From a virus (taxonomy: Duplodnaviria > Caudoviricetes): DNA of 64,000 nt. A program made the position numbers and the translations under genes. The notes beneath the pieces are model-generated. The model was not told where the DNA came from and did not search any database. It worked only from the letters and a program-made list of their open reading frames with translations. Of the stretch, positions 13,391 through 56,913 are shown one piece after another; the stretch's first letter is position 1, and the number at the start of each line of letters is the position of its first letter. The stretch lies in IMG/VR virus record IMGVR_UViG_3300024331_000152, positions 32,001 to 96,000 of that record; one strand, 5' to 3'.

Positions 13391-13408
13391 TAATTTTCAG
13401 GAGATTCT

Positions 13409-14735: not shown

Positions 14736-14745
14736 AAATACGCTA

Positions 14746-15150: not shown

Positions 15151-15222
15151 GGCGTTCAGACCGCGAATCTGAGCGTCTCTTTTTTTCTTGACAACAGGCG
15201 CAGAGTTTCGTACCTTCTGTTC

Positions 15223-15711
15223 ATGCATTGAATCGCCAACACGCATTCATACGTTTTCGTCCGGTACGATCTCTCCCTCGCACAATCTGTAATCCAGTCG
15301 AGCCATGCTACCCATTCGATGGCTAATGGGCTCTCCCAGAGCCCTGAAGTTCCGCATATCGTTCTGATCGGCGTTCCAGACGTCAAGGCCCTTGAACGGG
15401 TCATTCAAAAACTCCGCGACAATCACATTGAATTTGCTGCCTTCGATGAGCCTGACGATAATCTCGGCTTGACGGCGGTCGCTACTGTTCCTCTCAACGA
15501 AGAGCAGAGACTTGTGTTCCAGAACTACAAGATCTGGACTGAAGAAGAATACTTTTACACGCGCGTAGCTCAGTGGTCAGAGCACTCCGGGAGGTTGACG
15601 GAGAGGTCGGCTGTTCGAATCGGTCCGCGCGTACCATGGGCGGTTCATTCGGTGATGTATCCGGTTCGAATCCGGTATCGCCCACCATGCGCGGTTAGCT
15701 CGACTATGTAG
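15223..15711 (+). CDS. PTH2-like peptidyl-tRNA hydrolase with in-frame UGA at codon 3
   Basis: ATG CAT TGA then in-frame YVFVRYDLSLAQSVIQSSHA...IVLIGV...FDEPDDNLGLTAVAT; leaderless promoter TTGACA-17-TACCTT. Confidence 0.7.
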
Positions 15712-15737
15712 AGGGGAAGATCCTCGCCCGCGCTCCA
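15559..15737 (+). ncRNA. Three tandem tRNA-like elements with CCA ends (15559-15636, 15638-15687, 15689-15737)
   Basis: Acceptor stems plus CCA; first has a 9-nt anticodon loop, second is essentially acceptor plus T-arm, third is truncated. Confidence 0.65.
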
Positions 15738-15743
15738 ATTCGA

Positions 15744-15819
15744 GCGCTCGTGGCTCAGCGGCAGAGCGCCGGTCTTCAAAACCGGGTCAGCGTGGGTTCG
15801 AACCTCACCGAGCGCTCCA
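15744..15819 (+). tRNA. tRNA with UCA anticodon (UGA-reading), Gly-like acceptor
   Basis: CCGGT-CTTCAAA-ACCGG; G1-C72, C2-G71, G3-C70, U73; short variable loop. Confidence 0.8.
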
Positions 15820-15926
15820 CTGAAATTTGAGGTAATATATTTCTGCGCGCCGAGCGCGAGACCTGATCAGATCCGTCTCAACGGGCTGGCACGATGTCCA
15901 GCGCATCTAGCAAAAGGAGAATCAAG

Positions 15927-16277
15927 ATGCGTACTCGTTGCAAGTTCCGTGTTGTTGGAATTGAAGATGTTGATCACCAGATCCAGAAAAGGATCTACAA
16001 AGATCAGGTAAGCGCTGAGGAATATGCGGCAATCGAGAGTTCGGAATGGCCAGACCGTAATGGATTTGGGGATATCAGAATGTACAAACTCGTTGGCCTC
16101 GGCCATGCCCAGAACATCCGGCTCGCCGCTCAGTATGATCCATCAATCCCCGAAGATCAGCGCTTTATGGAAGCAACGCCGACTGGAGAGTTGAAGTTTT
16201 ACGTCAGCAACCCAGCAGTGATCGGCGGCTTTCAGATCGGCAAAAATTACTACATTGATCTGATACCATGTGGCTAG
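15927..16277 (+). CDS. Conserved phage hypothetical protein
   Basis: MRTRCKF...EDQRFMEATPTGELKFYVSNPAV..FQIGKNYYID; AAGGAG RBS. Confidence 0.65.
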   Translation: MRTRCKFRVVGIEDVDHQIQKRIYKDQVSAEEYAAIESSEWPDRNGFGDIRMYKLVGLGHAQNIRLAAQYDPSIPEDQRFMEATPTGELKFYVSNPAVIGGFQIGKNYYIDLIPCG

Positions 16278-16305
16278 CAGACCAGTGCCCGACCCTACAC
16301 AGGTC

Positions 16306-16338
16306 AAAAGGCCCATCCAGTTTCTGGACGGGCCTTTT
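16306..16338. terminator. Bidirectional intrinsic terminator between convergent genes
   Basis: AAAAGGCCC-ATCCAGTTTCTGGAC-GGGCCTTTT. Confidence 0.65.
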
Positions 16339-16690
16339 ACTTTACTCGTATCTTCGCTAGCGGTCCGGACGCAATACTCGTGTTCATTTGTCCAGCGATC
16401 ATCTGCTTGGTCTGCACGATGTAGCAGGCCGAGGAATTCTTCGGAATCGCATCAACGTATGCCAGTAGCGTGGTAGGAGATTGCGCGTTGAGCGGGGCGT
16501 AGTTTTTTGCGCTCGTAGCCGGACAGGTTGTTCCTGAGATCATCACACGGCTTACGATGTAGCTGCAAGCTGGCCACCCCGTACCGCAAGTGACAGGCAG
16601 TTGCCATGAGATCGTAACCTTGACGTTGGGCGGCGCGGCTGACGCGTACGTAAAGACGAAAACACCGATGAGAATGATCTTTCGCAGCAT
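16337..16690 (-). CDS. Secreted FN3-like small protein
   Basis: Signal peptide then VTISW..SYIVSR..LNAQSPT..YVD..CYIVQT. Confidence 0.55.
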   Translation of the reverse strand: MLRKIILIGVFVFTYASAAPPNVKVTISWQLPVTCGTGWPACSYIVSRVMISGTTCPATSAKNYAPLNAQSPTTLLAYVDAIPKNSSACYIVQTKQMIAGQMNTSIASGPLAKIRVK

Positions 16691-16843
16691 CGGGAACCCT
16701 CAGAAAATCGTCCAGATTCTGGACCGTGAGCGCAGTATAATACGAAAAGCCAACGGGGCGTCTCTCTAAAGTGGAGACGAATAGTATCAGGTCTTGCCGT
16801 CCGTGACCTGTTTCAAGGCAAATCAAATTGAGACAGGTGAAAA

Positions 16844-17320
16844 ATGGCAGGATACGTGTACCTTATCGGTACGCCAACGTTTCGTTGGTATAAAATCGGC
16901 AAATCCCGCGTTCCTGAGATCAGGATTCAAGATCTCGGAATTCTTCTCCCTTTTAAAATTGAAATTGTTGGTATCTGGAAAGCGCACGACCATACCGCTC
17001 TTGAGTCTCTACTACACGAGCGATACGCCGAAAGAAGAATAAACGGTGAGTGGTTTCACTTCTATCGCGCTGAGGTTATGGGGATATTCGCGTCCCTTCC
17101 TGAAGAAGCGAGGATATTTCCGTCTGGAAATTCCGATTCGTTTTTCGCTAAATTTTCGAACATCGAGCGAGATTGCCCGGAAGGCAAGAGACTTCATTTG
17201 TCTACTAGGAGGGTGCGTGGAAACTTTACAGATGAGCAGAGAGCCTACTTGCGACAAAAAGCGATAGAGGAGCATAAAAAGAAAAAAGCGCTACGGGATG
17301 CAAATAAGAGTATGCTTTAA
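16844..17320 (+). CDS. GIY-YIG (T5orf172-like) nuclease
   Basis: GYVYLI..YKIGKS..RIQDL...LESLLHERYAERRINGEWF. Confidence 0.8.
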   Translation: MAGYVYLIGTPTFRWYKIGKSRVPEIRIQDLGILLPFKIEIVGIWKAHDHTALESLLHERYAERRINGEWFHFYRAEVMGIFASLPEEARIFPSGNSDSFFAKFSNIERDCPEGKRLHLSTRRVRGNFTDEQRAYLRQKAIEEHKKKKALRDANKSML

Positions 17321-17402
17321 GCGTCGGGAAACCGACTATCCAGCAGGCTTGCAACGCGATTGTATGGGGCTTTAGTCTGCGGCCCGTTTCAAGGAGAACC
17401 AA

Positions 17403-18266
17403 ATGATGTATATCAAGCATTTCGTCCTCGCCGTGCGCGTCAACGGTAAAATCCTCAAAGAACATGACCAAGTTGTCCACCTCCCTTTCGGAGCTGAGTA
17501 TGAGCTGTTGCTCAAGAACCTCAACTCGCGCCGCGCGATGGTCGGTGTCTCCATTGACGGCAAGCGTACCAGTGATTGTCGTTTCGTAATTCCAGCTAAC
17601 TCGGAGAGCGTTCTTGAGCGCTACGTCAAAAACGGCAACATGGACTCCGGGAACCGCTTCAAGTTCATCGAACGCACCTCGGCAGTTGAAGAACATCGCG
17701 GAGTGGGATCGGACGACGGTATCGTGCGCGCCGAGTTTTGGGCAGAGCGAGAAGTTGTCACGCTTCCTCGCACAATCATCAATGATTCATGGCTTCCTTC
17801 ATCTCCGTATGATCGCAGGCGTCGCACGCTTGGAAATTCTGGAGGCTTTAGAAGTTTCAGCGGCATCACAGGACAAAGTGTTCCATCTGATGATGTGTCG
17901 TGCATGTACGGTAGTGTTCAAGGTGGAGCTGAGGCCCCGGGATCGAGCTTTAACGTAGGCTCGCTCAATGCGCAGGTGACATACACGTCATCGTTGGGCG
18001 CGGACATGTCGAAGATCGCAGATAACGACGCGGGCATCACCGTCCCGGGCAGCGAGTCGTCGCAGCGCTTCCACTGGACAAACGGCTTCGAGCTGGAGAG
18101 CACAAGCACCGTAATCATACTTCAGCTTCGTGGCGAGATCGGCGGACAGGCTGTTGCTGCGCCGGTCACGGTGGAGTATAAGCCTGTCTGCATCACCTGT
18201 GGCAAGACCAACAAGGGTACCAGCCGTTTCTGTGACCAGTGCGGAACGGCATTGCAAATTCTTTAA
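17403..18266 (+). CDS. Hypothetical protein with C-terminal zinc ribbon
   Basis: AAGGAG RBS; CITCG..SRFCDQCG. Confidence 0.65.
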   Translation: MMYIKHFVLAVRVNGKILKEHDQVVHLPFGAEYELLLKNLNSRRAMVGVSIDGKRTSDCRFVIPANSESVLERYVKNGNMDSGNRFKFIERTSAVEEHRGVGSDDGIVRAEFWAEREVVTLPRTIINDSWLPSSPYDRRRRTLGNSGGFRSFSGITGQSVPSDDVSCMYGSVQGGAEAPGSSFNVGSLNAQVTYTSSLGADMSKIADNDAGITVPGSESSQRFHWTNGFELESTSTVIILQLRGEIGGQAVAAPVTVEYKPVCITCGKTNKGTSRFCDQCGTALQIL

Positions 18267-18274
18267 ATAACCTC

Positions 18275-18467
18275 TTGCAATTTGCGCGCATCATAGGTTA
18301 AGGTAGGAAGCGTTATGAAACTCAACCGAGCCAATTCGAACCATTCGTTTAATCCAGCGGCACAACCGCAGGGTACAACGCGTGTGCGTGGCTCGGCCTG
18401 AACAGCATCCTTTAGCAATGCGATGCAGTACAGACCCCCGAGCCTAGATAATAGACTCGGGGGTTTT
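18275..18467 (+). promoter_or_regulatory. Promoter, leader peptide and attenuator of tRNA operon 2
   Basis: TTGCAA-18-TAAGGT; uORF 18315-18401 MKLNRANSNHSFNPAAQPQGTTRVRGSA; terminator ACCCCCGAG/CTCGGGGGT-TTT; GGCTCGG(18390) pairs CCGAGCC at 18326 or 18438. Confidence 0.8.
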
Positions 18468-18474
18468 GATTGGC

Positions 18475-18999
18475 ATGGGAAAGTGGCTGCATCGTGTTTC
18501 GAATATCGATTTTGATTCTCTCACTGGTGATTGCTCTACTTGTGGGCGCGTGAGATTGAAAGTAAAGAAAGGCGGCAGGAGATTTGCATGCGCTGTATCT
18601 GAGCAACGCTGGTGCGATGGACAAAGCGTATCAAAGAGAAGGGCTGCTCGCCGTAGACAAACTAGAAAGTTGCTCGCAAAGCTTCTATCTAGTGGATGTC
18701 GGATATGTCGAGTAGCCAAGAAAGGAATTCATTGTCATCATCTCGATAGTTCCACAAAGAGTTTCAATATTTCGCAAGGGTATACAGACTGTTCCAGAGA
18801 GCTGTTAATTGCCGAGCTGAAAAAATGTATTGCCGTGTGTCAGCAATGCCATACAAAGATTCACTTCAGGCAGTTTGTAGTATCTGAGGATTTGATTTCT
18901 GAGTGGAATAGAGATGTAGATGTTTTATTCACGCGTAGCTCAATGGTAGAGCCCTGCACTGTTAATGCAGTCATTGGGGGTTCGATTCCCTCCGCGTGA
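18475..18999 (+). CDS. HNH endonuclease
   Basis: GCRIC..IHCHHLD..K.FNISQ..AELKKCIAVCQQCH; 3' end runs into tRNA-Asn. Confidence 0.75.
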   Translation: MGKWLHRVSNIDFDSLTGDCSTCGRVRLKVKKGGRRFACAVSEQRWCDGQSVSKRRAARRRQTRKLLAKLLSSGCRICRVAKKGIHCHHLDSSTKSFNISQGYTDCSRELLIAELKKCIAVCQQCHTKIHFRQFVVSEDLISEWNRDVDVLFTRSSMVEPCTVNAVIGGSIPSA

Positions 19000-19003
19000 G
19001 CCA
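18929..19003 (+). tRNA. tRNA-Asn(GTT)
   Basis: CTGCA-CTGTTAA-TGCAG, CCA. Confidence 0.85.
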
Positions 19004-19010
19004 AATTAGT

Positions 19011-19084
19011 TGCGTCTTCGTTCAGTGGCAGGACGGTTGACTCTGAATCAACACACGGGAGTTCGATTCTCTCAGACGCAGCCA
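19011..19084 (+). tRNA. tRNA-Gln(CTG)
   Basis: GTTGA-CTCTGAA-TCAAC, CCA. Confidence 0.85.
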
Positions 19085-19092
19085 AATTTTGT

Positions 19093-19168
19093 TGGGAGAT
19101 GGCCGAGCGGCGTAGGCACGAGCCTTTGGATCTCGTACAGGCTGGTTCAACTCCAGCTCTCCCAGCCA
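19093..19168 (+). tRNA. tRNA-Gln(TTG)
   Basis: CTTTGGA loop, U1-A72, CCA. Confidence 0.85.
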
Positions 19169-19169
19169 T

Positions 19170-19245
19170 GCGGATGTAGTTCAATTGGCAGAACGTTGGA
19201 GTGCCACTCCAAAGGTTGCCGGATCGTTGCCGGTCATCCGCTCCA
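19170..19245 (+). tRNA. tRNA-Gly(GCC)
   Basis: TTGGA-GTGCCAC-TCCAA, U73 CCA. Confidence 0.8.
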
Positions 19246-19282
19246 GTTTGAGGTGAGAGGAATGCATTGAATTGATGATGAC

Positions 19283-19358
19283 GCTGCCGTAGCTCAAGTG
19301 GTAGAGCACCTGTCTCGTAAACAGGAGGTTGGGACTTCGAGTGTCCCCGGTAGCTCCA
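19283..19358 (+). tRNA. tRNA-Thr(CGT)
   Basis: CCTGT-CTCGTAA-ACAGG, CCA. Confidence 0.85.
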
Positions 19359-19378
19359 GTTTTCCCTGAGGTGATCTT

Positions 19379-19915
19379 ATGATCCGTAGAACAGTTTTGA
19401 TGCTGAACGCGAGCTACGAACCGCTGCGGATCATCAGCGCAAAGAAGTCCCTGACACTCTTAACCAAGGGTGTTGCCGTGGTGGAGGTACCAACCAAGAT
19501 CCAAGTCCACGCGGGGATCTACTTGCCGAGTGTTATTCGGTTGCGTCATTTCCGCAACGTGCCGCACAAGAGGCCAGTGCCGTCGAGAAAGAACATCTTC
19601 ACCAGAGACGGTTTTCGCTGCTTGTATTGCGGTGCCAAGGCTCCGAAAGTAGTGCTCGAACTTGAGCACATCGTTCCGAGATCGAGAGGCGGAGCAAACG
19701 CTTGGGACAACCTTTGTGCATCTTGTCACGATTGCAACCAGAAGAAGCGTGACAGGACTCCGGAGGAAGCAGGCATGAAGTTGATTCACAGACCTCTGCC
19801 CGCGACCGTACACACCGGCAGGTTCGTCTTGAAGACGATGGGTAACGAAATTGCAGAGTGGGGTCCGTTTCTATGGAAGGACTCTAAGGGCGAACAGAAG
19901 TTGCAGTTCGCATAA
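19379..19915 (+). CDS. HNH endonuclease
   Basis: [56 protein letters not shown]. Confidence 0.9.
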
Positions 19916-19975
19916 CAAGAAATAGCGCCGGGTTATGGATTGACAATTAAGCTCCGTGTGAAATAAAACGGTCTA

Positions 19976-20368
19976 ATGCCATACAGTGACCCGGCGAAAC
20001 AAAAAGAAGCTCTTCGGCGATGGTATCGCAGAGTTGTTCGTAAAAGACGCACAGATTGGTTTAAAGGAAAGCAATGTGCGACTTGTGGAAGTACGCGAAG
20101 ACTTGAATTGGATCATGTTGATCCAGCGCTGAAGGTGGATCATAAAATTTGGTCATGGAGCGAGAAAAGACGCACTGAAGAGCTTAATAAATGTGTTCCA
20201 CGGTGTAGAACTTGTCACATCGAGAGATCGGCAGAGCAACAACGAAAGCCATTGGTTCACGGAACGCGCGATGGATATATGTGGCATCGTTGTCGCTGTA
20301 GGGAATGCGTTAAAGCTGCGTCGCTCTACCGTAATGAGCAGCGACGTTTGAAGGGACGAAAGAATTAA
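19976..20368 (+). CDS. HNH endonuclease
   Basis: CATCGS..LELDHVDP..EELNKCVPRCRTCH, HGT..Y..CRCREC. Confidence 0.8.
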   Translation: MPYSDPAKQKEALRRWYRRVVRKRRTDWFKGKQCATCGSTRRLELDHVDPALKVDHKIWSWSEKRRTEELNKCVPRCRTCHIERSAEQQRKPLVHGTRDGYMWHRCRCRECVKAASLYRNEQRRLKGRKN

Positions 20369-20369
20369 A

Positions 20370-20444
20370 GCACTCGAAGCATAGTCGGAGATGCCCTCGG
20401 CTTGTATCCGAGAGAACAGAGTTCGAATCTCTGCGAGTGCTCCA
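20370..20444 (+). tRNA. tRNA-Thr(TGT)
   Basis: CTCGG-CTTGTAT-CCGAG, CCA. Confidence 0.85.
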
Positions 20445-20510
20445 AAGATGTCGGATGTGGCCCCGAGTTCGAGGAGGAATAGGCGAGAGCTTATCGGGGC
20501 TCAGGTTTAT

Positions 20511-20586
20511 GGAGCTATTGGCCGAGCGGTTTAGGCGCGGGACTGTGACCCCCGACACGAGTGTTCAACTCACTCATAGCTCCCCA
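20511..20586 (+). tRNA. tRNA-His(GTG)
   Basis: CTGTGAC loop, G-1:C73. Confidence 0.85.
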
Positions 20587-20590
20587 ATTT

Positions 20591-20665
20591 GGGGCTGTAG
20601 TGCTAATGGGAACACACTGGTTTTGCACTCCAGAGTTGAGAGTTCGATTCTCTCCAGCTCCACCA
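20591..20665 (+). tRNA. tRNA-Ala(TGC)
   Basis: G3-U70, TTTGCAC loop, CCA. Confidence 0.85.
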
Positions 20666-20699
20666 AATTTACGCAGGCGCTGAGCCCTCTCTGTTCTAT

Positions 20700-20862
20700 A
20701 CGTGACACGCTCAGGGAAGAAGATCAAAGGTGTCGCGTATATGCTCGCTTTTGGTTACAACCTTGAAAGAATTAAGGCAGAAATCGCAAAATGCGTCGTA
20801 CGCTGCGCGAACTGTCACCGCCGCCGAACGGCGAAGGTTTTAGGAAATTGGAAGTTGCACCA
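20700..20862 (+). pseudogene. Remnant of an HNH endonuclease
   Basis: Frame reading LERIKAEIAKCVVRCANCHRRRTAK with no N-terminal half. Confidence 0.6.
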
Positions 20863-20863
20863 T

Positions 20864-20940
20864 CAGGGCGTAGCCTAGCGGCTTCAGGCACTCGCTTCGG
20901 GAGCGAGATGACGTGAGTTCGAATCTCACCGCCCCGACCA
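20864..20940 (+). tRNA. tRNA-Pro(CGG)
   Basis: CTCGC-TTCGGGA-GCGAG, CCA. Confidence 0.85.
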
Positions 20941-20986
20941 TTTTAACGAGCCGGTTTTCATTAAAGAAATCGGCTGAAAATTTTAA

Positions 20987-21064
20987 CCGGGTTTAGCCTA
21001 GTCTGGCTCAGGCACCTGCTTTGGGAGCAGGACGACGGGGGTTCAAATCCCTCAGCCCGGACCA
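20987..21064 (+). tRNA. tRNA-Pro(TGG)
   Basis: CCTGC-TTTGGGA-GCAGG, CCA. Confidence 0.85.
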
Positions 21065-21065
21065 T

Positions 21066-21154
21066 GCACCCGTAGCCTAGCGGATTCAGGTAACGGTCTA
21101 CGAAACCGTCGAGGGAAACCTCTTACGCAGGTTCGATTCCTGCCGGGTGCTCCA
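21066..21154 (+). tRNA. tRNA-Arg(ACG) with long variable arm
   Basis: ACGGT-CTACGAA-ACCGT, GAGG-GAAA-CCTC extra arm. Confidence 0.8.
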
Positions 21155-21169
21155 TAATTGTAAGTGTTC

Positions 21170-21224
21170 GGCGCGGTGAGGCTGGGCGTGGCACGGTGAG
21201 GTTTGGTTCGGTATGGTTTGGCAT
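21170..21224 (+). repeat. GGY-NN pentamer mini-array (11 perfect units), putative guide RNA
   Basis: GGCGC GGTGA GGCTG GGCGT GGCAC GGTGA GGTTT GGTTC GGTAT GGTTT GGCAT. Confidence 0.85.
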
Positions 21225-21250
21225 TCTTGCCATGAGGAGGGTTATGCGAA

Positions 21251-21655
21251 TTGAAAAGGACATTTGGTCAGCGAGCTGCTGACTGGGTTACTGAAGCAAG
21301 TGGTAGCTGGCCGTTCATTCTGTGGTCAGTTGTTCTTGGCGTACTCTGGGTCTTGTCGAATGTGAGCAAGGTCCTTGTCTTCGATCCGTATCCTTTCCTG
21401 TTTTTGAACTGGGTGCTGACTGTGATCAGCACGTTGCAATCCCCGCTCATCATGCTGTCGCAGAATCGGCAGAATGAAACTGATCGCGAGCGCGTAGATA
21501 TGATCGTCCAGAAGCTGGACGATCATATCCGGGAAATTAAATTGCGCGCATGGCGAAGTTGTGGTAGGGTAGTCAAGTTGGGCTCAGGCCCGAGATTGAT
21601 CTTTGAAATCAAGTTTCCGTGGGTTGTAAACATGGATGGCCTTAAAAGATCCTGA
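21251..21655 (+). CDS. DUF1003-family membrane protein
   Basis: TFGQRAADWV..GSWPFI, FDPYPFLFLN..LQSPLIMLSQNRQ..DR. Confidence 0.85.
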   Translation: MKRTFGQRAADWVTEASGSWPFILWSVVLGVLWVLSNVSKVLVFDPYPFLFLNWVLTVISTLQSPLIMLSQNRQNETDRERVDMIVQKLDDHIREIKLRAWRSCGRVVKLGSGPRLIFEIKFPWVVNMDGLKRS

Positions 21656-21830
21656 CGTTAGGTTAGGCTCCGAAGCGTCCGGTCCACGGGATCAAGTTTC
21701 CGCTGACAGTGTTGCTTACATGGCAGGGTAACCTGCATTTCACTACGAATGAAAAACCGGGGCAACCCGGGTGTACCCGAAAGGGTTGCAGCACGACACC
21801 AGCGGAGAAAGTTTGGGTTGACTTGTTTGC
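21550..21830 (+). ncRNA. Candidate structured ncRNA
   Basis: Follows TAAATT-GCGCGC promoter motif; nested helices AGTCAA/TTGACT, TTCCGTGG/CCACGGGA, TCCGCTG/CAGCGGA, GNRA hairpins. Confidence 0.45.
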
Positions 21831-21831
21831 A

Positions 21832-21900
21832 TACATGGTAGCTCATTTGGTAGAGCATTCGCCTCTTAAGCGAAGGGTAGTCGGTTCAATTCCGAGTCGC
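21832..21900 (+). pseudogene. tRNA-Lys(CTT) pseudogene
   Basis: D, anticodon (TTCGC-CTCTTAA-GCGAA) and T arms present; acceptor stem and CCA missing. Confidence 0.6.
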
Positions 21901-22118
21901 AGAACGTCTCTGTACCTGAGTACGTTGATGACAATCTTCGCGCCATCAAGCGTGAGATCGAGAGCCGTCAGGCTGACCGTCGTGCGGCTCGTGTACGCGA
22001 GTTGAAGTCGCAGCGCGCCGGTCTTGCAACCGCTCAGGAGAAGCGGGAGGCCATCGAGAAGGAGCTTGCCTCACTCGGCGAGCCTGTCTAGCCATCGTCC
22101 AGAAACTGGAAAGGCCCG

Positions 22119-22340
22119 CTATGTGCGGGCCTTCTTTTTGTTTGCCTGCTCCAGCTTCTTGCGGGCACGTTCCTTGCTGATAGCGAGGTTCAGTGCGCTG
22201 GTGTACGAGAGGCAGTAGATAGCACGCGTGCCCTTGGCGCGCAGTTCCATCCAGTCAGCCTTGAACTCGACTACGATGGAGCGGGTCTTACCCCGCTCCC
22301 ATACGCAGTTCTCAGTCTCGACGACATCTTGAGGGGGCAC
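22119..22340 (-). CDS. Small basic hypothetical protein
   Basis: IVVEFK..MELRAKGTR..Y.LSY phage motif. Confidence 0.5.
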   Translation of the reverse strand: MPPQDVVETENCVWERGKTRSIVVEFKADWMELRAKGTRAIYCLSYTSALNLAISKERARKKLEQANKKKART

Positions 22341-22468
22341 ACGCGGTACTCAACCGAACCCATCACAAACGTACAGCAAGCGCTTGAGAGATACGGCATC
22401 AAGAACGTGCACGCGGGTCATCTGGAGAAGCTTGCCGAGGTATTTGGGATTGCGGCGAAAAAAGAAGC

Positions 22469-22628
22469 TTGCAATTTGCGCGCATCCTGAGTTAAGCTCT
22501 ATTTCGTTATGCAGAGAACTATAGCCATGTCGATCACCAAAGGGACCAAGAGGGTCATTTGGGGAGGCGTGTCTTAGGGGTCTGCACGAGTAGGTTTCAT
22601 CAGACCCCGACTCAGGTCGGGGTTTTTT
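22469..22628 (+). promoter_or_regulatory. Promoter, leader peptide and attenuator of tRNA operon 3
   Basis: TTGCAA-18-TAAGCT; uORF 22509-22577 MQRTIAMSITKGTKRVIWGGVS; terminator ACCCCGAC-TCAG-GTCGGGGT-T5; antiterminator GGGGTCTG(22577)/CAGACCCC(22601). Confidence 0.8.
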
Positions 22629-22646
22629 GTTGTTTGACAAGTTTAT

Positions 22647-22716
22647 AGGGGATGATCTGGGATCGACGAGGTCTCCAAAACCTCACAGCGGAGTTCAATT
22701 CTCCGATCCCCTGCCA
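22647..22716 (+). tRNA. tRNA-Trp(CCA)
   Basis: GAGGT-CTCCAAA-ACCTC, G73 CCA. Confidence 0.85.
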
Positions 22717-22719
22717 TTT

Positions 22720-22796
22720 GCCAGCGAAGCAGAAGTGGATATTGCGCGCGTCTCATAAGCGCGTTGTAGTGGGTTCGAGTCCCACCGTTGGCACCA
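22720..22796 (+). tRNA. tRNA-Met/Ile2(CAT)
   Basis: CGCGT-CTCATAA-GCGCG, CCA. Confidence 0.8.
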
Positions 22797-22864
22797 AGTT
22801 CACAGCGGTGTTCGCCTTACTCTGACGGCGCAATACCGTCCCGCTGTGAATCCAGTTTCTGGAC

Positions 22865-22944
22865 GCACGTGTAGCTGCTAGTCGGTATGTAGCAGTCCCC
22901 TTATAAGGGACCGGTTGTGGGTTCGACACCCGCCACGTGCACCA
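22865..22944 (+). tRNA. tRNA-Ile(TAT)
   Basis: GTCCC-CTTATAA-GGGAC, CCA. Confidence 0.8.
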
Positions 22945-22995
22945 AAATTAGCATCAAACCTGTTACGTCACCGGGAGACTGACAGGAGGAGAGCT

Positions 22996-23202
22996 ATGCT
23001 CATTACCCTGTTTTGGATCATTGCAGTTCTCGTTGTGGCTGGTCTTCTGTTGTACCTGATCAACACGATCCCGGGAATCGATCCAACGATCCACGCACTG
23101 ATCAGGGCTGTTGTGATCATCGTCTGCGTGGTCTTTGTGCTGTACTTTGTGTTCTCGTTGTTTAGCGGAGTGGCAATTCCAAGTCCGCACTTTACGAGGT
23201 AG
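22996..23202 (+). CDS. Small two-TM membrane protein
   Basis: AGGAGGAG RBS; two hydrophobic helices around NTIPGIDP. Confidence 0.65.
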   Translation: MLITLFWIIAVLVVAGLLLYLINTIPGIDPTIHALIRAVVIIVCVVFVLYFVFSLFSGVAIPSPHFTR

Positions 23203-23207
23203 TTTTT

Positions 23208-23282
23208 GGGCTGTAAGCTTTGTCGGCGAAGCAATCGACTCTTAATCGATAGAGCAGGGTTCGATTCCCTGACGGCCCACCA
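23208..23282 (+). tRNA. tRNA-Lys(CTT)
   Basis: ATCGA-CTCTTAA-TCGAT, CCA. Confidence 0.85.
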
Positions 23283-23340
23283 AATTTTGCGAAGGAGAAG
23301 TGAGATGCGAAAACAGAAAGATGACCCAGATAAACGAATT

Positions 23341-23416
23341 GGGGTCGTCGCATAGAGGCAACTGCAACGGACTTTTAATCCGAATGACGTGAGTTCGAAT
23401 CTCACCGGCCCCACCA
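23341..23416 (+). tRNA. tRNA-Lys(TTT)
   Basis: CGGA-CTTTTAA-TCCG, CCA. Confidence 0.85.
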
Positions 23417-23425
23417 TAGTTTTTT

Positions 23426-23502
23426 GCTGGCGTAACTCAGACGGACAGAGTGCCTGTCTTCTAAACAGGAAGCCGCTGGTTCGACTCCAGCCGTCAGCAC
23501 CA
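23426..23502 (+). tRNA. tRNA-Arg(TCT)
   Basis: CCTGT-CTTCTAA-ACAGG, CCA. Confidence 0.85.
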
Positions 23503-23503
23503 T

Positions 23504-23579
23504 GGCCCCTTAGCTCAGTCGGAAGAGCGGATCGGTCCTAACGATAAGGTCGGGAGTTCGAATCTCTCAGGGGTCACCA
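23504..23579 (+). tRNA. tRNA-Arg(CCT)
   Basis: ATCG-GTCCTAA-CGAT, CCA. Confidence 0.8.
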
Positions 23580-23585
23580 AGTTTT

Positions 23586-23662
23586 GCTGCCGTATCGGCC
23601 TCGCCTCCGAAGCGAGATCCCGTAGGTGGATAAGGCTGGTTCGAATCCAGTCGGCAGCTCCA
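23586..23662 (+). tRNA. D-armless tRNA-Arg(CCG)-like RNA
   Basis: Acceptor, CTCGC-CTCCGAA-GCGAG, long variable region, T-arm, CCA; D-arm replaced by 7 nt. Confidence 0.6.
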
Positions 23663-23667
23663 GTTTT

Positions 23668-23742
23668 GCGGATGTAGATCAACGGTAGATCGGGTGTCTT
23701 ACAAGCACTTCGTCGTGGGTTCAACTCCTACCATCCGCACCA
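23668..23742 (+). tRNA. tRNA-Val(TAC)
   Basis: GGTGT-CTTACAA-GCACT, CCA. Confidence 0.85.
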
Positions 23743-24220
23743 ACTTGTCGTGATCGAGTTCCCAATGGTGATTACGGCACAAGCCGACAAGATTATTAGG
23801 GCGATTAACGATTCCTAATGTCGTAGATTCGGCGAACTCACAAACGGGAGTGAGATGACAACAATCAACGTAGAGGTTGTAGCCGCAGATGGCGCATTTC
23901 TTCAAGAGTCCCGCTCTTAAAGCAACGCTCCTTGCATGAGATCGCACTACAGTATCGTAGGCGTTTCGAGATCCGGACTTTTTAAGATCTGCTAGGGTGA
24001 CAGATTCAAAATCTCGGCGACGGCAATCGCGACAACTTTTAACCCGATAGCGGTCTAGTATTTTGCCGCATTTTGGGCATGAATATATCTTTCGCGCATA
24101 CCCTTTCCAAGGGGTTCTAATTCTTTCTTTATTGTTGTAGATGGCCGCACATGACGAATTACAAAAACGTGGATTATTTGTTGGAACGTCGCAGTTGGCG
24201 CAGGTACGACGAAAGTTCAT
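23699..24220 (-). CDS. HNH endonuclease inserted antisense in the tRNA operon
   Basis: FCNSSCAA, CAICGY..VDCCHL...NNLVGLCRNHHWELD. Confidence 0.85.
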   Translation of the reverse strand: MNFRRTCANCDVPTNNPRFCNSSCAAIYNNKERIRTPWKGYARKIYSCPKCGKILDRYRVKSCRDCRRRDFESVTLADLKKSGSRNAYDTVVRSHARSVALRAGLLKKCAICGYNLYVDCCHLTPVCEFAESTTLGIVNRPNNLVGLCRNHHWELDHDKLVRMVGVEPTTKCL

Positions 24221-24347
24221 AGAAAGATGGTACCGGAGCTGTAGACAACGGCACCACCTTTTTAAAGAAGTAGCACAGGTTATCGTGCGAAAGAGTCATT
24301 CCTTATTCTGGACAAGACAAGGACTGGCTGTATGTTCAAAATTGAAC

Positions 24348-24424
24348 GCTGCCGTAGCTCAGTTGGCCAGAGCACACCCTTGGTAAGGGTGAGGTCGTCA
24401 GTTCGAAACTGACCGGTAGCTCCA
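24348..24424 (+). tRNA. tRNA-Thr(GGT)
   Basis: CACCC-TTGGTAA-GGGTG, CCA. Confidence 0.9.
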
Positions 24425-24430
24425 TATTGT

Positions 24431-24506
24431 TGGCGGATAGCTCAGGTGGTCAGAGCACGCGACCGATAATCGCGAGGCCGGAGTTCAACTCTCCGTCCGC
24501 CAACCA
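24431..24506 (+). tRNA. tRNA-Ile(GAT)
   Basis: CGCGA-CCGATAA-TCGCG, CCA. Confidence 0.85.
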
Positions 24507-24512
24507 AAGTTA

Positions 24513-24596
24513 GCGGGGGTCGCTCAGTGGTAGAGCCGCTGCCTTCCAAGCAGCCGACCTTGTGTCATGCGGGTTCGAATCCCGTCCCCCGCTCCA
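24513..24596 (+). tRNA. tRNA-Gly(TCC) with extended variable region
   Basis: GCTGC-CTTCCAA-GCAGC, U73 CCA. Confidence 0.8.
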
Positions 24597-34187: not shown

Positions 34188-34638
34188 AAGCTGCTCTGGT
34201 GAGTTAATCCCTCCAAGGTACCTCGCCCGCTAAGCGCCCGAAGGCCCCGTTCTCCTGTAACCTCGTCCCCCCGACAGGCTAAACAGAACGGGGCTTTCGC
34301 CTTTCCGGGTCTTCCACAATCAGGTACCTGTTTTGCAAACAATCCACAACAATTTTTGCTGTGGAAAACACTTGCGCGCAATTCTTGAATGCGTATGATG
34401 GCTGAGTCAGGCCGTACAACCTGATGCCTCAAACAGCGAAGTCAGCATCCGCGCCGGTCGGGGTCGGCTCCAATCGACCCCACCACCTCGCACTGAATCC
34501 TGCGTGAGGACACTGGCGTGTGGATTAAGGCTGAACTTTGCTGGATAGCTTCCAGCGGAAAATTGAGGCAATCCTATGCTTGACGCTCACAGAGCGCCAC
34601 AGGCACGCGCTAGTTTTTTGTCTTTTGAGGGATCGAAA

Positions 34639-35469
34639 GTGAATGAACTAAAAAAGCTACTTGATCGTCCCATTGCTTTTCATCGACCTTTCGTAAAAAT
34701 CACTGGCAGCGTTAATGGCGCGCTGATGCTTTCACAGGCTTTCTATTGGGCTAATCGCACCAACGATCCCGATGGTTGGTTTTACAAAACACAACAGGAA
34801 TGGGAAGAAGAGACCGGCCTCACCCGGCGAGAGCAGGATGGAGCAAGAGCGAAACTCCGCTCTGTTGGCGTCATCGAAGAAAAGCTCGTTGGGGTACCTG
34901 CGCGCCTCTATTACCGCGTGAATATGAAAGCTTTGGTTGAGGCTATGCACGAAACCGCCAAACTAGATGCACCGGACCCCCAGCCAGATGCACCAAACAG
35001 CCAAACTGTAGGCACCGAACCGCCAAACTCTATGCACGAAACCGCCAAACTATTAAAGAACAGAGACTACACAGAGACTACACAGAGACTACCTGACGCG
35101 GCAACTCCCGTGGAAAACCCAAAAAGCCCTCAGGTGCCTATCAAGTCTGAAATTACTTCGCATATGGTTGCGAAAGGCGTAATCGAAGAGCTAATGCTCG
35201 CAGGGAAAGATCTTGCAGTAAACCTTGAGGCAATTGCTCAGGCAGAACTAAAACGCGGCGGTAATCCAGACGACATCCGCGACCGTATGATCGCGGCGTG
35301 GCGGCTGTACGAACAGGAAAAGTCAAAGCTGGAGTACGTCAAGGGACCGGCAAAATTTTTCGGCGACGGCGACTGGCGAGATCCAAAGTCGTGGCCATAC
35401 CCGAAGGGATCGCGAAAAAAAGATCCTTTTGAAAATATGAAATTCATTAACTCTGGGGGGAAGAAGTGA
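34639..35469 (+). CDS. Phage replication initiator (wHTH)
   Basis: DRPIAFHR..TGSVNGALMLSQAFYW..GWFYKTQQEWEEETGLTRREQ; lies shortly upstream of dnaB. Confidence 0.75.
   Translation: MNELKKLLDRPIAFHRPFVKITGSVNGALMLSQAFYWANRTNDPDGWFYKTQQEWEEETGLTRREQDGARAKLRSVGVIEEKLVGVPARLYYRVNMKALVEAMHETAKLDAPDPQPDAPNSQTVGTEPPNSMHETAKLLKNRDYTETTQRLPDAATPVENPKSPQVPIKSEITSHMVAKGVIEELMLAGKDLAVNLEAIAQAELKRGGNPDDIRDRMIAAWRLYEQEKSKLEYVKGPAKFFGDGDWRDPKSWPYPKGSRKKDPFENMKFINSGGKK
34943..35092 (+). repeat. Iteron-like repeats (probable replication origin)
   Basis: CTATGCACGAAACCGCCAAACTA at 34943 and 35030 with degenerate copies between at about 22-bp spacing; ACAGAGACTAC x3 at 35060-35092. Confidence 0.7.
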
Positions 35470-39140: not shown

Positions 39141-39205
39141 GCCGAGGTCAGGTGAGGTATGTCGTCGTGAGTTGACGCGAGGCGCGGCTGGGTGCGGTAT
39201 GGTTA
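39141..39205 (+). repeat. GGY-NN pentamer mini-array (13 units)
   Basis: GCCGA GGTCA GGTGA GGTAT GTCGT CGTGA GTTGA CGCGA GGCGC GGCTG GGTGC GGTAT GGTTA. Confidence 0.8.
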
Positions 39206-39589: not shown

Positions 39590-39753
39590 TGCCTCAGCGA
39601 GTCGTAAGGGTTACGATCTGGATTTGTCTGCGATGCGGTCACGAGTGGAGTAGTAAGGATGGTAGTAAGCCAGTCTGCTGTGGGAGCTGCAAATCGCCGT
39701 ATTGGGATCGTCCTAGACAATCCGCAAAACAAAAGGCTACCGGGGGGAAATAA
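39590..39753 (+). CDS. Small zinc-ribbon protein, first gene of RAMP operon 1
   Basis: CLRCGHEW..PVCCGSCKSPYWD; promoter TTGACA(39553)..TATAGT; TAATG coupling to the next gene. Confidence 0.7.
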
Positions 39754-40421
39754 TGGCAACAAAGAAAGCGGCACCTGCGCCAACGCAGGATAGCAAGAGC
39801 GCTGTCGTACAAATCAAACCACCAAAGTTTCAGATTGGTGTTTTTAAAATCACTGGCACAGCACCGTTGGTGATGAACAAGTTTCCGCAAAAAGCCCTTG
39901 AGCAGATGGAAGACAAGCAGCGCGCAGGCAGTCAGGCGCGCAAGGGGCAAAAGAGAGAGTCGAAAGATTTCGAATCTCTCTATGAGGGCGCAAAACATAT
40001 CGCGCGGCAAGGCTGGTGTGGTATCCCAGCGTCGGCGTTCCGAAATGCAATGATCTCCGCCTGCCGTCTCGTTAATTTTAAAATGACACTCGCGAAGCTG
40101 ACGATCTTCATCGAAGCGGATGGTTTCGATAAAGACGAAGGCACGCCGCTGGTGCGGATCACATCCGGCAATCCGAAGCCAGTAAAGATGGCTGTCAGAA
40201 ATGCAACTGGCGTCTGTGATGTTCGTATCCGCCCGATGTGGGACGAATGGTCGGCTGTCCTGCGCATTCGTTTCGACAACGACCAATTCTCACTTACTGA
40301 CGTCGCCAACTTGCTGGACCGAGTTGGCCAGCAGGTCGGACTCTTGGAAGGCAGGCCCGACTCGAAGGCGTCGGCTGGCATGGGTTGGGGACTATTCAGA
40401 ATTGAGGAGGCTAAGAAATAA
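39753..40421 (+). CDS. Stand-alone RAMP/Cas7-like RNA-binding protein 1
   Basis: FKITGTAPLVMN first strand, GIPASAFRNAM helix, VRIRPMW thumb, C-terminal Gly-loop VGLLEGRPDSKASAGMGWGLF. Confidence 0.7.
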   Translation: MATKKAAPAPTQDSKSAVVQIKPPKFQIGVFKITGTAPLVMNKFPQKALEQMEDKQRAGSQARKGQKRESKDFESLYEGAKHIARQGWCGIPASAFRNAMISACRLVNFKMTLAKLTIFIEADGFDKDEGTPLVRITSGNPKPVKMAVRNATGVCDVRIRPMWDEWSAVLRIRFDNDQFSLTDVANLLDRVGQQVGLLEGRPDSKASAGMGWGLFRIEEAKK

Positions 40422-40873
40422 TGGGCACACTCTCGGCGAGTACACCAATCATTGACGAACTTCGTGCAATCGCGGCAAAGCACGAAGGTCGTCTTCACGC
40501 AGAAGAAGTTGTCAAAGCCGCCCGTTCTCAGAATTCTCCTTTACATGACAAGTTCATGTGGGACGATACTGAAGCGGCTCATCAGTATCGCCTAGAGCAG
40601 GCGCGCCACTTAATCCGTACGACGATTCAGTACATCGATGTCGGCGGATCGCCGCGCCCCGTGAATGTATTTGTGAGTCTCAGTAGCGACCGTGAAGATG
40701 GCGGCGGCTACAGAGAGCTACAAACGGTTCTCAAAAAGAAAGAGCATCGAGAGGTTCTTCTCGCCGACGCTCTCAAAGAGATGCGGTCGTTTGTGGATCG
40801 GTATGAGACGATCAAGCGGCTCAGTAAGGTCGTCGGTGAAATGAAAAGAATCTTGAAGACAGTGGCAGCATAA
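40421..40873 (+). CDS. Accessory protein coupled to the RAMP gene
   Basis: TAATG coupling; SPLHDKFMWDDTEAAHQYRLEQARHLIR; immediately followed by the pentamer array. Confidence 0.7.
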   Translation: MGTLSASTPIIDELRAIAAKHEGRLHAEEVVKAARSQNSPLHDKFMWDDTEAAHQYRLEQARHLIRTTIQYIDVGGSPRPVNVFVSLSSDREDGGGYRELQTVLKKKEHREVLLADALKEMRSFVDRYETIKRLSKVVGEMKRILKTVAA

Positions 40874-41404
40874 GTACGTTCGGGTGCGGCAGGTATGGTA
40901 AGGACGGGGATGCTTTGGAAGGGTTCGTTGTGGTGCGCTTAGGTGAGGCATCGCATTGCAGGCGCGGATAGGTTGGGTTTCGTTCGCAGTGATGTGGCTT
41001 GCAATGGAGATTTGAGCTACGGAGTTGCAGGCATGGTAAGGTTCGCAAGGTTTGTCTGGGTAAGCTGAGCTACGGAGTTGCAGGTGTGGTTAGGCCCGGT
41101 TGGTTAGGAAGTGAGTGGCAAGCCGAGGCATTGCAGGTACGGTTGGGTGAGTCTAGTTCGGGCTCGTCAGGGCGTGGCAAGGTGCGGAGTTGCAGGTTAG
41201 GAATGGTCCGGTAAGGCGCAGTACGGATGCGCCGGGAAGGGCAACGCTTTGCAGGCGAGGAGAGGACTGGTTAGGTTTGCTGTGGTCCGCTCGGGTATTG
41301 CAGGTGTGGAACGGGCGGCTAGGTCCGGCTGTGTTCGCTAAGGCTGCGCGGGGTTGGGCTGAGTGAGGTAAATAAGCAGAGTGTCGGGTAACCGACACTC
41401 TGCT
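40874..41404 (+). repeat. Multi-unit GGY-NN array: 8 units separated by TGCA, closed by a 13-bp hairpin
   Basis: CGGCAGG at 40887 and TTGCAGG at 40956, 41025, 41078, 41131, 41190, 41249, 41298 (spacing 69,69,53,53,59,59,49); AGCAGAGTGTCGG-GTAA-CCGACACTCTGCT at 41375-41404. Confidence 0.9.
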
Positions 41405-54576: not shown

Positions 54577-55842
54577 ATGCAAGCTTTCTGCCTAGCAGGC
54601 ATGGGTTTTGGGGATGAAGCTAAAGGAGCCGCGACCGACAGTTTGGCCCGCCAATTTCCCGGCGAAGACGTCCTGATTGTCCGTTACAATGGCGGCTGTC
54701 AAAGTGCCCACAACGTGGTCACGCCGGAAGGCAGACACCACACGTTTTCTCAGTTCGGCGCAGGCATGCTGGCGAGCGACAAAGCGCGGACGCATCTGTC
54801 TCGCTTTATGCTGGTTGAACCGTTCTCAATGATCAATGAGTCCCGGGCTCTGAACGCGCTTACACCGTTCGTCTGGGGCCGCACCACGGTAGATGCTCGC
54901 GCGCCGATCATCACGCCGTTCTGTAAATATCTCAACCAGCTTCGCGAGCGATCACGTGGCAAGAACCGGCACGGTAGTTGTGGTCGTGGTATTGGCGTCA
55001 CGCGCGAGCTTCAGATCCGATTCAACGACGACGAGCGAGTCCTGCGTGCAGGCGATCTCCGGGATGAGAAGCTGACGTTCGAAAAACTCATGATCCAGCT
55101 CAAGGCAATCTTCGATGAGATGCAGGATCTTGAACAGCAAGTCGGCGAAGATCCGTCGTCAGAGCGTGAGCACCGCAGGGCGATCCTCGAATGGGTAACC
55201 CGCTACGGCGTATGGCCAGCCAAGATTGTGGACGAGATGCCGAAGTTTACAATCGCAATCTTCGAGGGCGCGCAGGGTGTCATGCTGGATGAGACGTACG
55301 GCACGGCACCGCACAACACGTGGACGAATACCACGTTCGAGAATGCGGACACGCTTTTAGATGAGGCTGGGGTTGACAAATACAGCCGCTACAACATTGG
55401 CTGCTTCCGTACCTACTACACGCGCCATGGGCATGGTCCGTTTCCGACCGAAGATCCCGCACTGGATCTACCAGAAGAGCACAATAACGACAGTGGATTT
55501 CAGGGAGTATTTCGTCGCGGCCACTTCGACTTCACGCTTGCGAATAGCGCGTATCAGGTTGTCGGAGGACTAGACGGAATTGCTCTGAGTCATCTTGACT
55601 ATTTACCTCGGATGGGATGGGATGAGAATGATTTCATCGCGTCGATCAAAGCAAATCTGGGCACGCCGATCTGCATGACAGGCAGAGGGCCAACCGCAGC
55701 AGAACGAGTGTGGAATAAAAAATTCGAGGTGAGCAATGGACGTCCTGCATCAAGTTCTGAAGGAACTCAAGCCGGGGGAGGAGATCCTGTGCTCACTCCA
55801 AACATTCCAGCGGATCAAAGAGAGGTTGAACGACTTCCGTAA
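54577..55842 (+). CDS. Adenylosuccinate synthetase (PurA)-like protein
   Basis: GMGFGDEAKG, RYNGGCQSAHNV, HGSCGRGIG, FEGAQGVMLD, RTYYTRHGHGPFPTE. Confidence 0.8.
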   Translation: MQAFCLAGMGFGDEAKGAATDSLARQFPGEDVLIVRYNGGCQSAHNVVTPEGRHHTFSQFGAGMLASDKARTHLSRFMLVEPFSMINESRALNALTPFVWGRTTVDARAPIITPFCKYLNQLRERSRGKNRHGSCGRGIGVTRELQIRFNDDERVLRAGDLRDEKLTFEKLMIQLKAIFDEMQDLEQQVGEDPSSEREHRRAILEWVTRYGVWPAKIVDEMPKFTIAIFEGAQGVMLDETYGTAPHNTWTNTTFENADTLLDEAGVDKYSRYNIGCFRTYYTRHGHGPFPTEDPALDLPEEHNNDSGFQGVFRRGHFDFTLANSAYQVVGGLDGIALSHLDYLPRMGWDENDFIASIKANLGTPICMTGRGPTAAERVWNKKFEVSNGRPASSSEGTQAGGGDPVLTPNIPADQREVERLP

Positions 55843-55921
55843 AAGAAACAGTCAGATCTTGTTGATCGTTCGTCCAGATACTGGATTTCAACGAATCAAA
55901 CGAAAGGAATAAGTTTTTTGG

Positions 55922-56131
55922 GGCGAGGTATGGCCGGGTCAGGTAAGGTCGGCTGGGGTGAGGTACGGTCTGGTGTGGCGAGCTTATGCTCGGTTGGTTG
56001 TGGTGAGGCTAGGTCTGGCAGGCCACGGCGAGGTGCGGTGAGTCGGGGCGAGGTCGGGTCCGGCAAGGTAAGTTGTGGTGCGGTAAGGCTGGCTCTGGCG
56101 CGGTAAGGTTAGGCGAGATGTGGTTAGGCAA
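55922..56131 (+). repeat. GGY-NN array: 42 pentamers in unbroken phase upstream of RAMP gene 2
   Basis: 33 of 42 pentamers begin GGY; ends at hairpin TCAATTC-CGGGA-GAATTGA over the RBS. Confidence 0.9.
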
Positions 56132-56155
56132 TTTCAATTCCGGGAGAATTGAGAC

Positions 56156-56797
56156 ATGGCAAGAGGAACGGCAACAATGGTAAACGAGCCGACCAATGGG
56201 GCGGCTGAGGCGATTGCGACTGGACTTCCTTACATCGTCAACGTGACGATTGAAGGCACAGCAGATCTTCTTCTTCATAGCTGGAGTTGCGAAGCCGTAG
56301 AAGAGAAGGCGACAGCAAAGAAGGGATCAGCAGCGAAGAAGACAGATAATTTGGAAAGTTACGTACGTCGCAACGACGATGGCGTAATCTGTCTGCCAAG
56401 CGAATATCTTCGCATGAGTGTCGTAAACGCCGCGAAGTATCGGCAGGACCCGCGATCTCCTCGAAAGTCCGCGATGGATTTATTTAAGGCCGCGCTTATT
56501 AGCCTTGAGCCCCTCTGCCCGATTACTACGGCGGCTGGAGATCTTCCGAGGGTTTGGGAATACGAACATAAGTGTCGCGTGCAAGTGCAGCGCAACGGCA
56601 TCACGCGCGTGCGGCCTGCGTTCCGTGAAGGATGGCGAGTAGATGTACCACTGATGGTAAACTTGCCGGAATATATTCCGACAAAAGACCTGAGCGACAC
56701 GATCACGCAAGCCGGTAAGTTGATAGGTGTGGGAGATTTTCGTCCGTCATATGGACGCTTCCATATTTTAAGTTTTGAAGTTCAGAAAGCGGAATAA
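56156..56797 (+). CDS. Stand-alone RAMP/Cas7-like RNA-binding protein 2
   Basis: VTIEGTADLLLH, CLPSEYLRMSV, RVQVQRNGITRVRPAF thumb, Gly-loop AGKLIGVGDFRPSYGRF. Confidence 0.72.
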   Translation: MARGTATMVNEPTNGAAEAIATGLPYIVNVTIEGTADLLLHSWSCEAVEEKATAKKGSAAKKTDNLESYVRRNDDGVICLPSEYLRMSVVNAAKYRQDPRSPRKSAMDLFKAALISLEPLCPITTAAGDLPRVWEYEHKCRVQVQRNGITRVRPAFREGWRVDVPLMVNLPEYIPTKDLSDTITQAGKLIGVGDFRPSYGRFHILSFEVQKAE

Positions 56798-56798
56798 T

Positions 56799-56890
56799 GG
56801 TTATGCTTTGGCATGCTGAGGTCAGGCGAGCCGAGGTCTGGTCAGGCCCGGTTTAGGCACGGTTTGGCTGGGTGTGGTTTGGTATGGGCA
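56799..56890 (+). repeat. GGY-NN array (about 18 units) downstream of RAMP gene 2
   Basis: GGCAT GCTGA GGTCA GGCGA GCCGA GGTCT GGTCA GGCCC GGTTTA GGCAC GGTTT GGCTG GGTGT GGTTT GGTAT. Confidence 0.85.
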
Positions 56891-56913
56891 GTAAAAAGAT
56901 GGAGGAATTTAAT

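Follow-up and report, generated by a model that had tools for sequence, protein, structure and literature searches.

The stretch of DNA analysed here, hereafter called the window, comprises 64,000 nucleotides of a phage of the Caudoviricetes (positions 32,001 to 96,000 of the IMG/VR record IMGVR_UViG_3300024331_000152). It contains a locus in which vipr, a gene for a RAMP/Cas7-like protein, is flanked on both sides by arrays of GGY-NN pentamers, and which we assign to the VIPR systems. On the plus strand the order is palindrome, 42 pentamers, hairpin, vipr open reading frame (ORF), 11 pentamers, a slip of 1 nt and 7 further pentamers; a PurZ-like gene lies on one side of the locus and a run of small ORFs on the other. 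The individual features are:

55873-55885, strand not applicable: palindrome TCCAGATACTGGA, 35 nt 5' of the upstream array.
55920-55979, plus strand: guide 1, units 1-12, with the NN string GG GA AT CG CA AA CG GG GA AC CT GT.
55980-56009, plus strand: units 13-18, partly degenerate, with a small hairpin CGAGC-TTAT-GCTCG at 55979-55992 that forms a terminator-like stem.
56010-56074, plus strand: candidate guide 2, units 19-31, reading Y-L-S/R-T-D/E-A-D/E-G-D/E-R-P-N/K-N/K.
56132-56154, plus strand: hairpin of 9 bp between the upstream array and the start codon.
56156-56797, plus strand: vipr ORF of 213 aa, RAMP/Cas7-like Vipr family; the protein ends in GVGDFRPSYGRF.
56798-56852, plus strand: downstream array A, 11 units beginning directly 3' of the vipr stop codon, 7 of the 11 canonical.
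56854-56888, plus strand: downstream array B, 7 units after the 1-nt phase slip, 6 of the 7 canonical, ending in GGTTTGGTATGGGCAGT.

The upstream array (55920-56129) is made up of 42 uninterrupted in-phase pentamers, 33 of which have the canonical form NN-GG[CT]. We count the NN-GGY phase from 55920, where an earlier note on this DNA counted the GGY-NN phase from 55922. When these 210 nt were shuffled 2000 times by mononucleotide, the number of in-phase GGY triplets averaged 6.1 and never exceeded 12, and across the whole window its 99.9th percentile is 14, compared with the 33 observed. In the two downstream arrays together 13 of 18 units are canonical. In-phase counting thus bears out the numbers of the earlier note (42 units upstream with 33 GGY, about 18 downstream), and the linker-less upstream array, the 213-aa gene and the upstream palindrome which it described are all present. 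No TGCA or TTGCAGG linkers occur between 55920 and 56129, in contrast to the array at 40880-41380 of a first VIPR locus in the same window. Tandem Repeats Finder detected no CRISPR-like array in the window, the periodicity at the locus being 5 nt, and no other cas genes were seen beside it, although no systematic cas search was made. At Rfam gathering thresholds the window holds only tRNAs and a permuted tmRNA, with no hammerhead ribozymes in or near the arrays. The motif TCCAG-N3-CTGGA, of which the palindrome TCCAGATACTGGA is a copy, occurs at 14 sites of the window (8750 to 62150; 0.04 expected) and is likely to be linked to operators or promoters throughout the phage.

VIPR has been described in three preprints of 2026 (including bioRxiv 10.64898/2026.04.26.720920, 10.64898/2026.04.26.720927 and 10.64898/2026.10.15.759431). 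Vipr is there an ancestral RAMP, and its guide RNAs, the vrRNAs, consist of 9-16 GGY/NN repeats whose NN pairs read double-stranded DNA (dsDNA) with one skipped base (NNx), usually the wobble base; binding represses transcription (10.64898/2026.04.26.720920). The same preprint distinguishes seven types and six vap families, includes linker-less 'staggered' arrays and describes systems without self-targets.

The focal vipr product, for which over 6,000 homologues exist, none of them named, is assigned to phrog_4652 and to no Pfam family; in the public gene call it begins at Met8 and is 206 aa long. A profile of 69 homologues matched PDB entry 36pp, 'SUSP1 Vipr protein', over nearly its full length (positions 32-205, E 8.9e-18). 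BLASTP of the focal protein against the vipr product of phiSUSP1 gave E 2e-11, and tblastn likewise found the vipr coding sequence of phiSUSP1 (KT454805.2). According to cryo-EM and mutagenesis in the VIPR preprints, the two guanines and the pyrimidine of each unit are held in SUSP1 Vipr by R138, D177, W178 and R179. These residues align with R153, D194, F195 and R196 of the focal protein, and R153, D194 and R196 are conserved in at least 90% of the 69 homologues. For the structure model the alignment was used (single-sequence AF2 reached a pLDDT of 32). Same-strand GGY arrays with a period of 5 lie directly beside the gene in 26 of 29 IMG/VR loci with relatives of 51-76% identity, while arrays on the minus strand, i.e. 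opposite to the gene, were found in only 3 of the 29; the GGY frame is kept among the arrays of relatives and the NN strings differ. In the 142,794-bp phage genome the best NNx matches of the guides equalled those of shuffled controls, so that no self-target is evident. An RNA binder of the TRAP-like or coat-protein-like kind, taking 5 nt per subunit, had also been considered and was abandoned given the VIPR preprint and the match to 36pp. Judged from sequence and profile comparison, membership of the focal locus in VIPR is solid.

As to its kind, the locus is probably a vap-less, linker-less VIPR. The earlier note had seen no coupled accessory gene, and none is coupled or conserved: the neighbouring ORFs of 31 homologous loci share no cluster except Vipr itself. 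In two relatives whose Vipr is 76% identical, L001 and L002, the guides are parted by linkers of about 30 nt with GGCATTGCG (L001:2311-2440), and array architecture is therefore not strictly tied to the Vipr clade. These linkers resemble the TTGCAGG linkers of the first VIPR locus of the window, unlike the linker-less focal array. In the cultured-lake phage DSL-LC04 (OR003939.1; L031:2501-3558) a Vipr with 50.7% identity goes under the annotation 'helix-turn-helix transcriptional regulator'; the end of this vipr gene is overlapped by a gene of 147 aa, a possible accessory gene of the clade.

The guides were read by the published NNx rule; for guide 1 the seed comprised the 18 fixed bases of units 2-10. 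In 596 Gb of bacterial DNA, with one genome per species, this seed gave 66 matches where about 17 are expected by chance. Forty-nine of them lie in frame within one family, the homologues of a gene of about 70 aa, and place the skipped bases on wobble positions; the other 17 are scattered outside this family. The match extends to all 12 units, 24 of 24 bases, in 28 genomes. Read as NNx, guide 1 spells the codons G-E-I-R-Q/H-K-R-G-D-T-L-V. The correspondence breaks off precisely at unit 13, where the units first become degenerate and the small hairpin sits, and we therefore delimit guide 1 as units 1-12; the vrRNA of the SUSP1 structures in the VIPR preprints is likewise 12 units long. A backwards pattern yielded 0 matches in 806 genomes, and shuffled seeds yielded 7 matches versus 411. 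The guide covers the most conserved block of the target gene, whose consensus is GLDxRxRDxxGEIRxKRGDTLVxTLR..YG (L037-L102, e.g. L081:2279-2497 and L051:2289-2495). L001 and L002 carry a different 12-unit guide, D-T-L-V-G-T-L-R-x-x-Y-G, which reads onto the same gene 8 codons downstream; at the level of sequence this is independent support for the target gene. Guide 1 has mRNA sense, and pairing is thus possible with the template DNA strand and not with the transcript. The target protein belongs to no Pfam or NCBIfam family and meets only 'hypothetical' names and clusters. Neither this gene nor DUF3892, a cargo domain met below, was found in the phage itself.

The setting of the target gene is that of anti-phage defence. 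Among its neighbouring ORFs (n = 132) Peptidase_M78 (19) and XRE HTH / HTH_3 (helix-turn-helix; 17) are the families met most often. About 24 of the 49 loci have a divergent M78 gene at -430 to -520 bp of the target gene, a distance which leaves room for an HTH gene in between. The target gene is followed immediately, in the same orientation and often within 10-110 bp, by defence genes of varied kind: a CBASS cyclase (CD-NTase, PADLOC E 1e-124) with HORMA, a Pycsar cyclase PycC (E 1e-214), a PycTM / 2TM effector, a patatin effector (E 4e-159), Multi_ubiq with a DUF6791-ThiF E1, AbiEi, and a DUF3892 gene. The gene of about 70 aa is thus the first gene, or leader gene, of diverse anti-phage operons, divergent from a pair of XRE-HTH and Peptidase_M78 genes. 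This arrangement corresponds to the divergent HTH and PF06114 layout of CapH/CapP immune operons: according to Lau et al., capH (HTH) and capP (PF06114) lie upstream of, and opposite to, immune operons which DNA damage derepresses. A keyword search of the CapH/CapP papers found no mention of the leader gene. A phmmer search of the M78 protein of L081 against the PDB gave no match, and the HTH protein matched generic XRE entries only.

Seven DUF3892 genes adjoin the guide-1 target; in 4 of them units 19-27, further along the upstream array, match the C-terminal DUF3892 motif YLRT.ADGD with 16 of their 18 bases, and on a metagenomic DUF3892 C-terminus (L108) the match of this candidate guide 2 extends to 22 of 26. 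No perfect site was found for it, the matches in genomes and metagenomes being those of 16/18 and 22/26. These matches suggest that guide 2 probably targets the DUF3892 cargo gene of the operon type addressed by guide 1. A metagenome scan with units 19-27 returned 18 matches, 17 of them chance-like and about half in acidic repeats of the DxDxDG type. Units 13-18 do not match the flanks of either target and may be a tail or a boundary between guides.

Exact 9-unit scans of IMG/VR stayed at chance level throughout, with one match each for units 2-10, units 15-23 and downstream array A, and none for units 19-27, 26-34 and 33-41. The match of units 2-10 lies in a provirus of 45.9 kb (G001, L032) and is wobble-aligned at a gene start, yet it is a chance-level hit; no other guide maps to this element, which is unrelated to the phage. 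The matches of units 15-23 and of downstream array A fall outside the reading frame or in non-coding DNA. When units 28-42 and both downstream arrays were scanned under relaxed conditions against DUF3892-bearing loci, the matches did not rise above shuffles.

How the locus might act can be proposed by homology with SUSP1, for whose system the preprints demonstrate the mechanism. On RNA transcribed from the flanking GGY-NN arrays, Vipr would assemble into a polymer with one protomer per pentamer, each GGY being hidden and each NN presented, and the filament would bind dsDNA by reading NNxNNx. During infection such a filament may sit on the leader gene and block transcription of the defence genes behind it, a block that would coincide with the moment when DNA damage would derepress them. 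As only codon positions 1 and 2 are read, one guide could cover many alleles and many types of defence cargo, and a second guide would probably be aimed at the DUF3892 cargo gene. On balance we favour, by a small measure, the view that this stand-alone VIPR silences host defence operons through guide 1 on the leader gene. We put at about even chances the wider proposal that a lytic soil phage uses VIPR against defence such that one guide could silence any immune operon switched by XRE/M78, in several phyla. This would cover CBASS, Pycsar, ubiquitin-like and DUF3892 operons and would make the leader gene an undescribed common component of CapH/CapP-type cassettes.

The earlier note had read the 5' array differently, as an mRNA leader through which Vipr binding and a hairpin at the ribosome binding site (RBS) autoregulate translation. 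The array does sit between the likely promoter region (palindrome at 55873) and the start codon. As there is no strong terminator between the palindrome and the vipr start, the array is probably co-transcribed with vipr, and binding of Vipr to the co-transcribed array is expected. The hairpin at 56132-56154 exists, with its 9 bp, but the GGGAG Shine-Dalgarno sequence lies mostly within the loop; with -9.2 kcal/mol and a z of -0.93 it folds no better than shuffles, and in the 76%-identical relative L001 a hairpin before the start codon is weak or absent. Several relatives have a strong GC hairpin between array and gene, or downstream arrays only. The upstream array moreover behaves as guide RNA genes, its first 12 units being a perfect NNx image of a foreign gene. 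Co-transcription of array and vipr is likely; for a role in translational feedback we found no support, and we hold it to be very improbable.

The chief rival to silencing of host defence keeps the VIPR mechanism and changes its aim. The leader islands would then sit on competing integrative elements, satellites or plasmids, and silencing would disable a competitor and not the host's own immunity, as one would expect from the published natural targets, all of which are competing mobile elements (satellites, prophages or other VIPR loci). One and the same leader protein sequence is present in several species of Hyphomicrobiales and on 62 contigs, and the gene is found across several phyla, patchily and rarely within them, a spread that fits horizontally moving islands. 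Some loci have an integrase-like ORF and Fic or AbiE genes close by. XRE/M78 switches of the ImmR/ImmA type are typical of integrative and conjugative elements and prophages, which such pairs also control, so the islands may be mobile. On the other hand, degenerate peptide patterns did not find the leader gene in 2.9 million IMG/VR contigs, nor did the exact 9-unit scan, and the target is followed immediately by defence genes, not by genes for replication, lysis or structure. Defence islands being often mobile, this explanation overlaps with the one we favour; taken by itself it is possible, and we consider it the less probable of the two. More doubtful still is that the match between guide and gene has no present function, being a relic of host range or of guide-writing, or that the leader gene is itself the target because its product is toxic to the phage or senses it. 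Perfect sites are indeed rare, and a protein of about 70 aa that is named only 'hypothetical' invites such doubts. Two related phages, however, hold different guides to the same conserved block, guide 1 is intact at 24 of 24 bases against 28 genomes, and guide 2 fits a gene carried as cargo by this type of operon; we regard this alternative as improbable. Several further points tell against the silencing of host defence operons. The 28 perfect sites were found among about 185,000 species genomes, and 800 sampled genomes added 1 match. The label 'CapP' follows from Pfam family and gene arrangement only, the link of guide 2 to DUF3892 from imperfect matches in homologous genes, and no genome holds perfect sites for both guides. 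Finally, the remaining units and both downstream arrays yielded no target in the IMG/VR, self and DUF3892-locus scans.

Among known systems the closest is the type II VIPR of SUSP1 (vipr, vap1 and four vrRNAs; 10.64898/2026.04.26.720920, 10.64898/2026.04.26.720927; PDB 36pp), with a homologous Vipr and the same GGY-contact residues. Both have GGY-NN guides on either side of the gene, a 12-unit guide, no self-targets and a similar motif at the 3' end (GGTTTGGTATGGG in the comparison), and focal guide 1 can be read as NNx with its skip bases on wobble positions. They differ in that the focal Vipr is only about 33% identical, pairwise over no more than the C-terminal 76 residues, and that the focal locus has neither a vap gene nor a conserved leader or pseudoknot tail for each guide; its 42 units are continuous and free of linkers. 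The target that we propose is the leader gene of defence operons on bacterial chromosomes, whereas that of SUSP1 is a phage satellite. As a separate observation, GGTTTGGTATGGGCAGT (56873-56892) is almost identical to the repeat/tail junctions GGTTTGGTATGGGTAGT and GGTTCGGTATGGGTAGT of SUSP1 (L030:3316-3335 and 3463-3482), despite the Vipr identity of about 33%. The preprint also names other VIPR architectures: stand-alone vipr genes, linker-less 'staggered' arrays and single-vrRNA systems. The continuous arrays, the 1-nt slip and the stand-alone gene fit its description of staggered arrays and vap-less loci, for which the preprint text names no natural targets. The backbone RAMPs of class 1 CRISPR (Csm3/Cmr4/Cas7, including nuclease-free type IV) keep a 6-nt register as opposed to 5 nt here; the pairing at the focal locus is noncontiguous, with 2 of every 3 target bases read, and the tandem-repeat scan showed no repeat-spacer array. 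With regard to the aim, the Vibrio phage ICP1 reportedly directs its CRISPR-Cas against the PLE anti-phage island of its host (Seed et al. 2013), and would thus be a further case of a phage-borne RNA-guided system turned on a host-resident anti-phage element. The ICP1 system is said to be a full type I-F that destroys the island DNA and acquires spacers, whereas the minimal focal binder would only repress, at a conserved regulatory cassette common to unrelated defence systems.

The first VIPR locus of the window consists of the following elements:

39753-40421: vipr gene.
40421-40873: accessory gene (phrog_15946).
40880-41380: array with TTGCAGG linkers.

It shares with the focal locus the phage, the family phrog_4652, the pentamer grammar and the strand logic; it differs in having a translationally coupled accessory gene and linker-separated guides, neither of which the focal locus possesses. 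Pairwise BLASTP of the two proteins gave no match. At the profile level they are related: hhalign of the first-locus RAMP against the focal family profile gave 95.3% probability, E 2e-8, over 160 columns with 23% identity. The G-loop of the focal Vipr is 8 residues shorter. This agrees with the proposal of the earlier note: by distant homology, G-loop, array architecture and accessory gene two subtypes of one system coexist in this phage. No guide of the first locus gave a seed match on the defence-leader loci. Two further short same-strand GGY-NN tracts, at 21150-21249 and 39146-39205, lie far from both vipr genes and resemble the 'solo vrRNAs' of bioRxiv 10.64898/2026.10.15.759431; none of them gave a seed match on the defence-leader loci either.

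Regarding the remainder of the window, the plus-strand gene at 54577-55842 encodes the PurZ-like adenylosuccinate-synthetase homologue (PF00709, E 5e-45; phrog_1211 '2-aminooxy adenylosuccinate synthetase', E 1.5e-55), by which 2-aminoadenine may replace adenine in the phage DNA. The phage genome of 143 kb carries 35 tRNA genes in several blocks at 9053-24596 and a permuted tmRNA at 14419-14684. At 34945-35092, within the ORF 34576-35469, five direct repeats of 22 bp are followed by three exact repeats of 11 bp; they look like replication-origin iterons embedded in a gene.

VIPR is already published, and this locus is not novel as a system. In the two VIPR preprints with analyses of natural targets, a keyword search turned up nothing on use against defence, on CBASS or on host immune genes. 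What is new here is a class of natural target unreported in those preprints, which suggests the use of VIPR against defence. If this is true, the phage would be the first one to turn RNA-guided silencing on host innate immunity, and the wobble-skipping code would gain a functional reason, in that one guide serves for many alleles and many types of cargo. It would also provide a handle on an unannotated leader gene that is common to many damage-inducible defence operons.

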